A DNA stretch of 64,000 nt from Candidatus Dormibacteria bacterium. Its GTDB lineage: Bacteria; Chloroflexota; Dormibacteria; Aeolococcales; Bog-877. The translations under genes and the position numbers were made by a program. The DNA lies in contig JBOHUG010000054.1 in assembly GCA_050734135.1 (NCBI GenBank), positions 8,189 to 72,188 on the forward strand. The letters run 5' to 3'. Positions 51,423-52,083 of this stretch are shown here, one piece after another; within the stretch, counting starts at the first letter, position 1, and every line of letters starts with the position of its first letter. The notes below the pieces were generated by a model. The model saw only the letters and a list, made by a program, of their open reading frames with translations, was not told the origin of the DNA and made no database searches.

Positions 51423-51558
51423 AATTACCCGGGTTCCGCGACGCCCAAGACTCACTTTCCTCTGTGCTGTTACAGCGCTACTGGTGTCTACCCGAGCGTC
51501 TCGGTACGGGCTGACTTTCAAGGCCTCACCGAGCTGCCGACGCTCGGAGCCCTGGGGA

Positions 51559-52083
51559 TGGGACATCGTCCTCCGCTTCCAGCACTACGCCCCCTTTCGT
51601 CATCTCGGTGTCCTCGAGAACTTCGCCTTCGGCCTGCGGGTGTGACCGCGGTCGGCGATCGAGGTCAGACAGCGGGTGGGCGAGCTGCTCAAGCGAGTCC
51701 GTCTCCAGGGCGAGTCGGCGCGCTAGCCATCCCAGCTGTCGGGCGGCCAGCTCCTGCGAATGGCGCTGGCCGGAGCCGTGGCAGTCCGGCCCCAACTGTT
51801 ACTTCTCGACGAGTCCTGCGGCGCCCTGGACGCGACCGTTCGCAAGGGACTTCGGGCCTGGCTGCGAAACCGGCACGACCGAGTGGAGATCAGCACGGTG
51901 CTGGTCACGCACGATCAGGACGAGGCGCCCGAGGTGGCTGACCGGCTGGTGATCATGGCCCAGGGCCGCCTGGTCCGGGTGGGGGCGCCCGCGGAGCTCG
52001 ATTACGAGACCGCCAACGACTCCGTGTTCACCCTCCTCGGTCCGGGCGACCAGATTCCGGGGGACGTGGGTTCGGCCCCATGA
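51559..52083 (+). pseudogene. cysA: sulfate/thiosulfate ABC transporter ATP-binding protein CysA relic (5'-truncated, two in-frame stops)
   Basis: Single reading frame [68 protein letters not shown]...[23 protein letters not shown]...VLVTHDQDEA. This aligns to CysA Q-loop, signature, Walker B and H-loop. There is a TGA at a conserved Leu position (51640) and a TAG at a conserved Tyr (51724). Only about 135 nt separate it from cysH, so the Walker A region is missing. Confidence 0.6.

Follow-up and report, generated by a model that had tools for sequence, protein, structure and literature searches.

A deletion-derived cysA pseudogene downstream of cysH in a Candidatus Dormibacteria genome

The window analysed here is a 64,000-nt stretch of DNA (66% G+C) from a metagenome-assembled genome (MAG) of Candidatus Dormibacteria. 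Within it, the sulfate-reduction gene cysH and a convergent gene for a polar-amino-acid ATP-binding cassette (ABC) ATPase (GlnQ/TcyN-like) are separated by 912 nt that hold no long intact gene. An initial annotation described part of this interval as a decayed copy of cysA, the ATPase gene of the sulfate ABC importer. The locus therefore raises the question of what this sequence is, how it arose and whether the organism has lost the importer while keeping the genes for sulfate activation and reduction. Our answer is that the interval very probably holds a unitary pseudogene, derived by deletion, which comprises the 3′ 80% of cysA (codons 68-327).

The identity of the relic was assessed from family profiles, solved structures, protein matches and gene order. 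The sulfate ABC transporter ATPase family TIGR00968 is the top family match of the relic translation (E = 1.2e-56, profile positions 73-233 of 237) and CysA NF008105 is the second (E = 5.2e-52, positions 78-247 of 362); both outrank PhnT2, PotA and all other ABC ATPases. The scores of 191.9 and 176.7 bits fall below the respective cutoffs of 342.75 and 502, a shortfall explained by the loss of about a quarter of the domain and the decay of what is left. Among solved structures the best match is PDB entry 1Z47 (E = 1e-35), the nearest intact proteins are Dormibacterota CysA proteins of 327 residues with 68-70% identity to the relic, and the relic frame translation includes the segment VTHDQDEA. 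Relatives were taken from contigs that encode the closest intact CysA proteins (L003-L006) and from scans of GTDB species representatives and Joint Genome Institute metagenomes with the window CysH; their loci are referred to by L numbers. Gene order gives orthology as well: between cysH and the glnQ-like operon the relic occupies the place that cysA has in L003 and L004, runs colinear with it and ends at the same stop position, and the translated relic aligns colinearly with intact CysA up to this native stop. The presence of a CysA-like stretch directly after cysH, the core of the initial annotation, is thus correct, far beyond chance.

The closest intact CysA (P0001), used as a tblastn query, and DNA alignment with relatives resolve the interval into the following parts, all on the + strand.

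51423-51528 (+): surviving 5′ portion of the cysH-sbp spacer, with no cysA sequence (window 51420-51517 corresponds to L003 7117-7214)
51529-51538 (+): deletion junction, a single copy of the 10-bp motif CCGAGCTGCC
51539-51561 (+): cysA codons 72-75 in scrambled form, lengthened by a net ~10 nt and out of frame with the downstream part
51562-52044 (+): cysA codons 76-236 in one frame, without Walker A but with the Q-loop, LSGGQ, Walker B and H-loop
51643-51645 (+): in-frame TGA at codon 103, opposite Arg103
51724-51726 (+): in-frame TAG at codon 130, opposite the invariant Tyr130 of YPSQLSGGQ
51760-52083 (+): open reading frame (ORF) of 107 residues, annotated as 'hypothetical protein ACRENX_04940' (MGH7642351.1; P0010 is 100% identical)
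52044-52046 (+): GGG run with a +1 G insertion (~52045) that shifts the frame
52046-52321 (+): cysA codons 237-327 in the shifted frame, encoding the C-terminal TOBE-like regulatory domain, with the native stop TGA at 52319-52321

Residues 76-242 of P0001 match window 51562-52062 at 70% identity; the next frame carries the match to residues 237-325, at 52046-52312 and with 51% identity. Sequence derived from cysA begins at ~51529 and is unambiguous from 51562, which corresponds to codon 76. Homology thus begins at codons 68-76, and the Walker A motif GPSGGGKS (P0001 residues 36-43) falls in the deleted segment, in agreement with the earlier proposal that the 5′ end including Walker A is lost. 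The extent of the relic had to be redrawn from 51423-52083 to 51529-52321. The first part of the earlier interval, 51423-51528, is spacer and has no Rfam match, while the stop at 52081-52083 is merely the first one met in the shifted frame; the TGA at 52319-52321 corresponds to homologous codon 328, exactly the orthologous stop position. Apparent traces of a frame-shifted Walker A to 'ERPDSG' segment in frames 2 and 3 of 51440-51560 were rejected, as the DNA alignment assigns this sequence to the cysH-sbp spacer.

Both in-frame stops that had been proposed are present. The TGA had been placed at a conserved Leu, but the residue is Arg103, which is Arg in five of the five nearest intact orthologues and Lys in 1Z47. 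The TAG does replace the conserved Tyr of the signature region, Tyr130, which is likewise invariant among these five. Decay in a single frame, set apart in the initial annotation from the homopolymer frameshifts, is not what we find, since a short-run +1 G at ~52045 shifts the frame (window CTCGGTCCGGGCGACC versus CTCGGACCAGCGACC in L003 and CTCGGGCCTGCGACC in L004; CCGGGCG versus CCAGCG/CCTGCG in the relatives). A further disruption lies near the junction, where the distance from the motif to GACATCG is 23 nt in the window and 13 nt in L003 and L004. No uninterrupted ORF remains, given the TGA, the TAG, the +1 G, the net insertion and the absence of a start codon. The stump cannot encode an ABC ATPase, because it has no Walker A, no start codon, two stops and two frame disruptions.

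What stood at this site can be read from the relatives. In L003-L006, L011, L017, L020 and L061 the gene order is cysN-cysD (-), cysH-sbp-cysT-cysW-cysA (+) and glnQ-glnP-SBP-glyoxalase (-), where SBP is a solute-binding-protein gene. The window flanks have the same order minus the cassette, with cysH as the left and the GlnQ/TcyN-like ATPase gene as the right boundary of the conserved arrangement. In the DNA alignment, window 48330-51517 corresponds to L003 4030-7214 and window 51562-54072 to L003 10226-12743, both at 78% identity. The segment missing between them measures 2,975 bp in L004 coordinates (2,977 bp in L003 coordinates) and comprises the last ~76 nt of the cysH-sbp spacer, sbp, cysT, cysW and cysA codons 1-67. 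Loss of the sulfate importer at this locus, as first claimed, is therefore strongly supported by the intact cassette that relatives keep at the exact site and by the ~2.98-kb deletion and further lesions in the window. The syntenic comparison suggested at the outset does find intact sbp-cysTWA at the same position in relatives; this outcome, which had been named as one that would refute the pseudogene, supports a deletion instead. A tblastn search with L003 Sbp, CysT and CysW gave no match in the 64-kb window, nor did Pfam annotation of the window. The partner genes are thus absent from the window, as stated before, but they had been expected downstream, and in the relatives they lie upstream of cysA.

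The junction itself carries a single copy of a motif that is present twice in the nearest intact relatives, once in the cysH-sbp spacer and once at cysA codons 68-71. In L004 the copies are CCGACCGGCC at 7228 (spacer) and CCGACCTGCC at 10203 (cysA); in L003 they are CTGACCCGCC at 7226 and CCGACCTGCC at 10203. The direct-repeat consensus is CCGACCnGCC, a spacer copy is also found in L013, and the offset from GGGCTGA to the motif is 14 nt in the window, L003, L004 and L013 alike. The gene order is a direct observation, and the junction fits a short-repeat mechanism. An ancestor with cysH-sbp-cysT-cysW-cysA, as in close relatives today, would have undergone a single deletion of ~2,975 bp, reaching from the 3′ end of the spacer through sbp, cysT and cysW to cysA codon 67. 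The deletion may have occurred between the 10-bp direct repeats, by slipped-strand or short-homology recombination, leaving one copy behind. The resulting stump, deprived of a promoter-proximal start codon, ribosome-binding site and Walker A, would have been unable to make the ATPase, and later neutral drift would have added the net insertion of ~10 nt, the two nonsense codons, the +1 frameshift and an excess of replacements.

The spacer shows some features of its own. The first ~90 nt after the cysH stop (window 51423-51514) are conserved in L003, L004, L010, L012, L013, L018 and L052, with or without a cassette. The consensus fold of the cysH-sbp spacer is weak (-4.2 kcal/mol), and the window copy, at 68%, has diverged further than its flanking genes, at 78%.

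The stump has evolved differently from its neighbours. Of 156 sites that are invariant in five intact orthologues (L003, L004, L011, L017 and L020), 32 are changed in the relic (20.5%). The same measure gives 20/250 for cysN, 6/207 for cysD and 11/149 for cysH, together 37/606 (6.1%), an approximately 3-fold excess in the relic (Fisher p = 3.6e-7); the intact taxa score 0.6-6% in cysA. Changes unique to one of two sequences were then counted in a Tajima-type comparison, with L011, L017 and L020 as outgroups and cysN, cysD and cysH as flanks. At codon positions 1 and 2 the window-to-L003 ratio is 46:9 in the relic and 70:45 in the flanks (p = 0.003), and the window-to-L004 ratio is 46:3 and 73:40, respectively (p = 7e-5), whereas at third codon positions the relic and flanks behave alike. 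Window-specific change at invariant first and second positions amounts to 11.7% in the relic versus 4.5% in the flanks. Some of the replacements adjoin catalytic motifs: the LSGGQLQR signature region (including QLQR) and the LLLLDEPF Walker B region (DEPF to DESC) are altered, and other stretches have come to read ALAGAVA and EAPEVA in the relic. Relaxed constraint is thus specific to this lineage and this gene.

Per-site rates place the period free of constraint at very roughly 20-45% of the independent history of the lineage, an estimate that takes neutral change on the window branch to run at 0.2-0.4 per site. Neutral change on this scale would be expected to produce about two stops per ~230 codons, as seen here. 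DNA identity to the nearest relatives reaches no more than ~79-85% (CysH scans), and the date of the deletion is thus rough.

Several points weigh against this account of deletion followed by neutral decay. The repeat mechanism is read from present-day relatives at ~78% DNA identity and not from the true ancestor, and a repeat matching at 9 of 10 positions is no rarity by chance when a spacer is compared with a GC-rich gene of 1 kb. The repeat is informative because both breakpoints coincide with its copies, not because it exists. The pairwise ratio of nonsynonymous to synonymous rates (dN/dS) against L003 is 0.19 for the nucleotide-binding part, no higher than that of cysH (0.20), and decay becomes visible only once the changes on the window's own branch are counted separately. 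A pairwise comparison with L003 and L004, tried as a test of decay, did not separate the nucleotide-binding part of the relic from cysH and was replaced by the branch-specific counts; the path between the sequences is dominated by time under selection. The window sequence from cysH through the relic to the following gene recurs with 100% identity in two other assemblies, in a 20.6-kb contig of GCA_973417115.1 and in a Logan contig of SRR27067711. The three assemblies may share reads, so that this identity excludes assembler-specific errors only. A read-level error at the single +1 G is also possible, although correcting it would not rescue the gene.

The relatives allow the loss to be placed in a wider context. 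The states of the cassette at this site are as follows.

Intact cassette: L003/L009, L004-L006, L011, L017, L020, L061
Probably intact cassette, cut by contig ends: L013, L057, L060
Stump of sbp codons 1-58 abutting the glnQ stop: L010 (10860-11040), L054 (4581-4751)
Fragment of sbp, codons ~24-98: L059
Pseudogene of sbp interrupted by three or more in-frame stops and joined to cysA codons 294-327 (with another stop): L063 896-2006 (CABDZR010000314.1)
Clean removal, leaving the cysA-glnQ spacer and no more than the first ~110 nt of the cysH-sbp spacer: L012, L018/L056
Larger deletions that also removed the amino-acid transporter: L007, L008/L051, L019/L058, L053, L055

In all of these loci cysN, cysD and cysH are full-length. 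The L063 allele is an independent internal deletion of ~2.7 kb and the mirror image of the window relic. Among the deletion alleles only the window keeps most of cysA, and the relics are not nested: the window retains what L063 and L010 have lost, and vice versa. In a bootstrapped glnQ-glnP tree the window falls beside L003, L004 and L010 (100%), apart from L012/L018 (100%), with cassette-bearing taxa in both basal (L011, L017 and L020) and derived (L003 and L004) positions. Because the relics are not nested and the cassette bearers are both basal and derived, the direction of change is loss and not gain. The cassette has been lost at least five times including the window, which adds to at least four other independent alleles. 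Literature searches found no report of this cassette loss.

The left breakpoint of L012 lies at approximately L004 7231, inside the same 10-bp motif (L004 7228-7237; L012 6985-7026). Common descent of the window deletion with that of L012/L018, which this shared breakpoint might imply, is ruled out by the placement of these loci in the glnQ-glnP tree. Two deletions starting in the same motif or hairpin of the cysH-sbp spacer may point to a structural deletion hot spot. The GC-rich hairpin of this spacer stands as a candidate for such a site in the window and in the phylogenetically separate L012.

Three other explanations of the locus were weighed against a deletion-derived pseudogene. The history could run in the opposite direction, with the cassette inserted beside cysH in some relatives and the window holding a separately acquired stray cysA fragment, and the interleaving of cassette presence and absence on the tree might be taken to favour this. 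Such a gain is scarcely credible: the relic begins at the native spacer and ends at its native stop beside glnQ, the flanks on either side follow the order of the intact operon, the cassette occupies the same site in the basal clade (L011, L017 and L020) and in the derived L003 and L004, and the differing stumps in differing lineages (5′ sbp, sbp'-'cysA fusion, 3′ cysA) are explained only by loss. Alternatively, the real genome might carry an intact sbp-cysTWA, with the deletion and stops produced by mis-assembly or read errors. The source is a MAG, the +1 G sits in a GGG run and an SBF-family transporter gene in the window (58327-59270) is also frame-split, all of which speak for such an artefact. 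Nevertheless, we regard it as highly improbable, in that the relic is reproduced without a difference in two other assemblies, a 10-bp repeat is too short to collapse an assembly, errors cannot yield a ~3-fold replacement excess confined to codon positions 1 and 2 of the relic on the window branch, and other studies have recovered many relatives with deletions of a comparable kind. Removal of both stops by re-sequencing is unlikely, given the two 100% identical assemblies and a relaxed-selection signal that read errors could not generate.

It is also conceivable that the remnant still works, through the 107-residue ORF, through recoding of the stop codons or as a regulatory 3′ untranslated region or RNA of cysH. 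This ORF is annotated as a protein, no terminator-like site is seen on the + strand between cysH and the relic, which makes co-transcription probable, and ~800 nt persist despite the usual bacterial deletion bias. The ORF is, however, simply the longest stop-free piece of the relic. It starts at the conserved internal Met of QRMALARA, an inherited residue, with no new Shine-Dalgarno sequence visible, and Walker A, the Q-loop and the signature are all missing from it. Invariant residues are replaced inside it (DEPF is changed, and another stretch now reads EAPEVA), and the frameshift parts it from the C-terminal domain. No Rfam family covers the relic, a sensitive Rfam scan of 51300-52400 gave no match, and the same sequence has been wholly removed in other lineages (L012 and L018). 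Residual function of any of these kinds is accordingly very unlikely. A promoter and terminator scan returned nothing on the + strand; since no terminator-like site separates cysH from the relic, the relic is probably transcribed as the tail of the cysH message, and it would not be translated into anything useful. We therefore return to a deletion-derived pseudogene of cysA, of which 'hypothetical protein ACRENX_04940' is a fragment, an annotation error to be corrected.

The genes around the relic are arranged as follows.

48330-49631 (-): cysN, intact
49628-50584 (-): cysD, intact
50742-51422 (+): cysH, intact (NCBIfam NF002537, 242.7 bits against a cutoff of 154)
52335-53111 (-): convergent polar-amino-acid ABC ATPase (GlnQ/TcyN-like), intact, 91% amino-acid identity to L003
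53108-54028 (-): permease of the polar-amino-acid ABC transporter
54050-55033 (-): binding protein of the polar-amino-acid ABC transporter

The earlier statement that cysDN and cysH are intact holds, in that the genes are full-length and cysH scores above the NF002537 cutoff. The cysH stop codon is at 51420-51422, and its product aligns over the full length with that of L003 at 78% amino-acid identity. The NCBIfam name for the window CysH is 3′-phosphoadenosine 5′-phosphosulfate reductase; a CC pair is present, and 'SIGCAPTT' stands in place of the CxxC of adenosine 5′-phosphosulfate (APS) reductase, as it does in the relatives. An APS-kinase domain is missing from the window CysN, and the window shows no cysC. 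The polar-amino-acid transporter (52335-55033, -) is syntenic with the cys genes throughout the clade and has been deleted along with the sulfate cassette in several relatives. The best NCBIfam matches for its ATPase and permease are TcyN (L-cystine transporter) and a cystine permease, both below cutoff, and its binding protein points away from a cystine assignment.

Elsewhere in the window, the genes are intact by Pfam annotation apart from a BASS/SBF-family transporter gene at 58120-59270 (-), which is frame-split and could be a second pseudogene or a sequencing frameshift. Its N-terminal half (58656-59270; PF01758/TIGR00841, profile positions 16-147 of 321) ends at a stop, and a membrane-rich C-terminal half follows in another frame. 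A frameshifted giant gene, suggested by overlapping long ORFs at 30.5-39.4 kb, was rejected, as Pfam resolves it into an ordinary leuD-leuC-leuA-leuB-cimA-ilvC-ilvB cluster with long upstream ORF extensions; there is thus no sign of general genome decay. The whole 64-kb window contains no tRNA gene and no Rfam family at the gathering threshold.

With regard to sulfate uptake, the organism no longer encodes the SulT importer at its ancestral site and has kept cysDN and cysH. No SulP, CysZ, PiT-CysP or TauE gene is found in the 64-kb window. Another route of sulfate uptake, as the initial annotation proposed, would be consistent with the many cassette-less relatives that keep intact cysN, cysD and cysH; uptake of cystine by the neighbouring amino-acid transporter is speculation. 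According to a preprint on the Chloroflexi supergroup (10.1101/2021.08.23.457424), sulfite reductases of the cysIJ/sir type seem to be missing from Dormibacteraeota, which calls the downstream pathway itself into question in the phylum. It is possible, if somewhat doubtful, that the deletions amount to a recurrent and perhaps selected loss of a cysH-linked high-affinity sulfate ABC importer in a peat and soil clade of Dormibacteria in which cysDN and cysH always stay intact. If this is true, the clade routinely obtains sulfate, or uses CysDN and CysH, by a SulT-independent route, which would deserve attention given the reported absence of a known sulfite reductase. Metabolic reconstructions should not credit this organism with a SulT sulfate importer. 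The independent deletion alleles form a small natural experiment in an uncultured phylum, showing how an operon is dismantled, how long its relics last and that the genes for sulfate activation and reduction can outlive the canonical transporter.

In comparison with known systems, the relic is an ordinary deletion-derived pseudogene, a well-known kind of object and not a new biological system; what is added here is a mapped junction, neutral decay specific to one lineage and the recognition of the operon as a recurrent deletion target in the clade. Like the CysA of SulT importers (CysPTWA/Sbp-CysTWA), the relic has the Q-loop, LSGGQ, Walker B, the H-loop and a C-terminal TOBE-like domain, in unaltered order and closed by the native stop, but it lacks codons 1-67 with Walker A, the start codon and the partner permease and binding-protein genes, and it carries two nonsense codons and two frame disruptions. 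Residues 88-236 of Alicyclobacillus acidocaldarius CysA (1Z47) align without gaps to the nucleotide-binding core of the relic; 1Z47 is a complete, dimeric and active ATPase, whereas the relic begins at the equivalent of approximately residue 80. The other deletion alleles (L010/L054, L059, L063 and L012/L018) share with the window the site between cysH and the glnQ-like operon and the retention of cysDNH, and L063 similarly keeps a multi-stop relic, but their breakpoints and surviving pieces differ (a 5′ sbp stump, an sbp'-'cysA fusion or nothing). Illegitimate recombination between short direct repeats leaves deletion-derived pseudogenes in reductive genomes such as that of Mycobacterium leprae. 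The window relic resembles these in its truncation, its repeat-bounded deletion, the subsequent nonsense and frameshift mutations and the relaxed constraint; it differs in that the window otherwise looks intact save for one frame-split transporter, and in that a single operon is affected, repeatedly so among the relatives.

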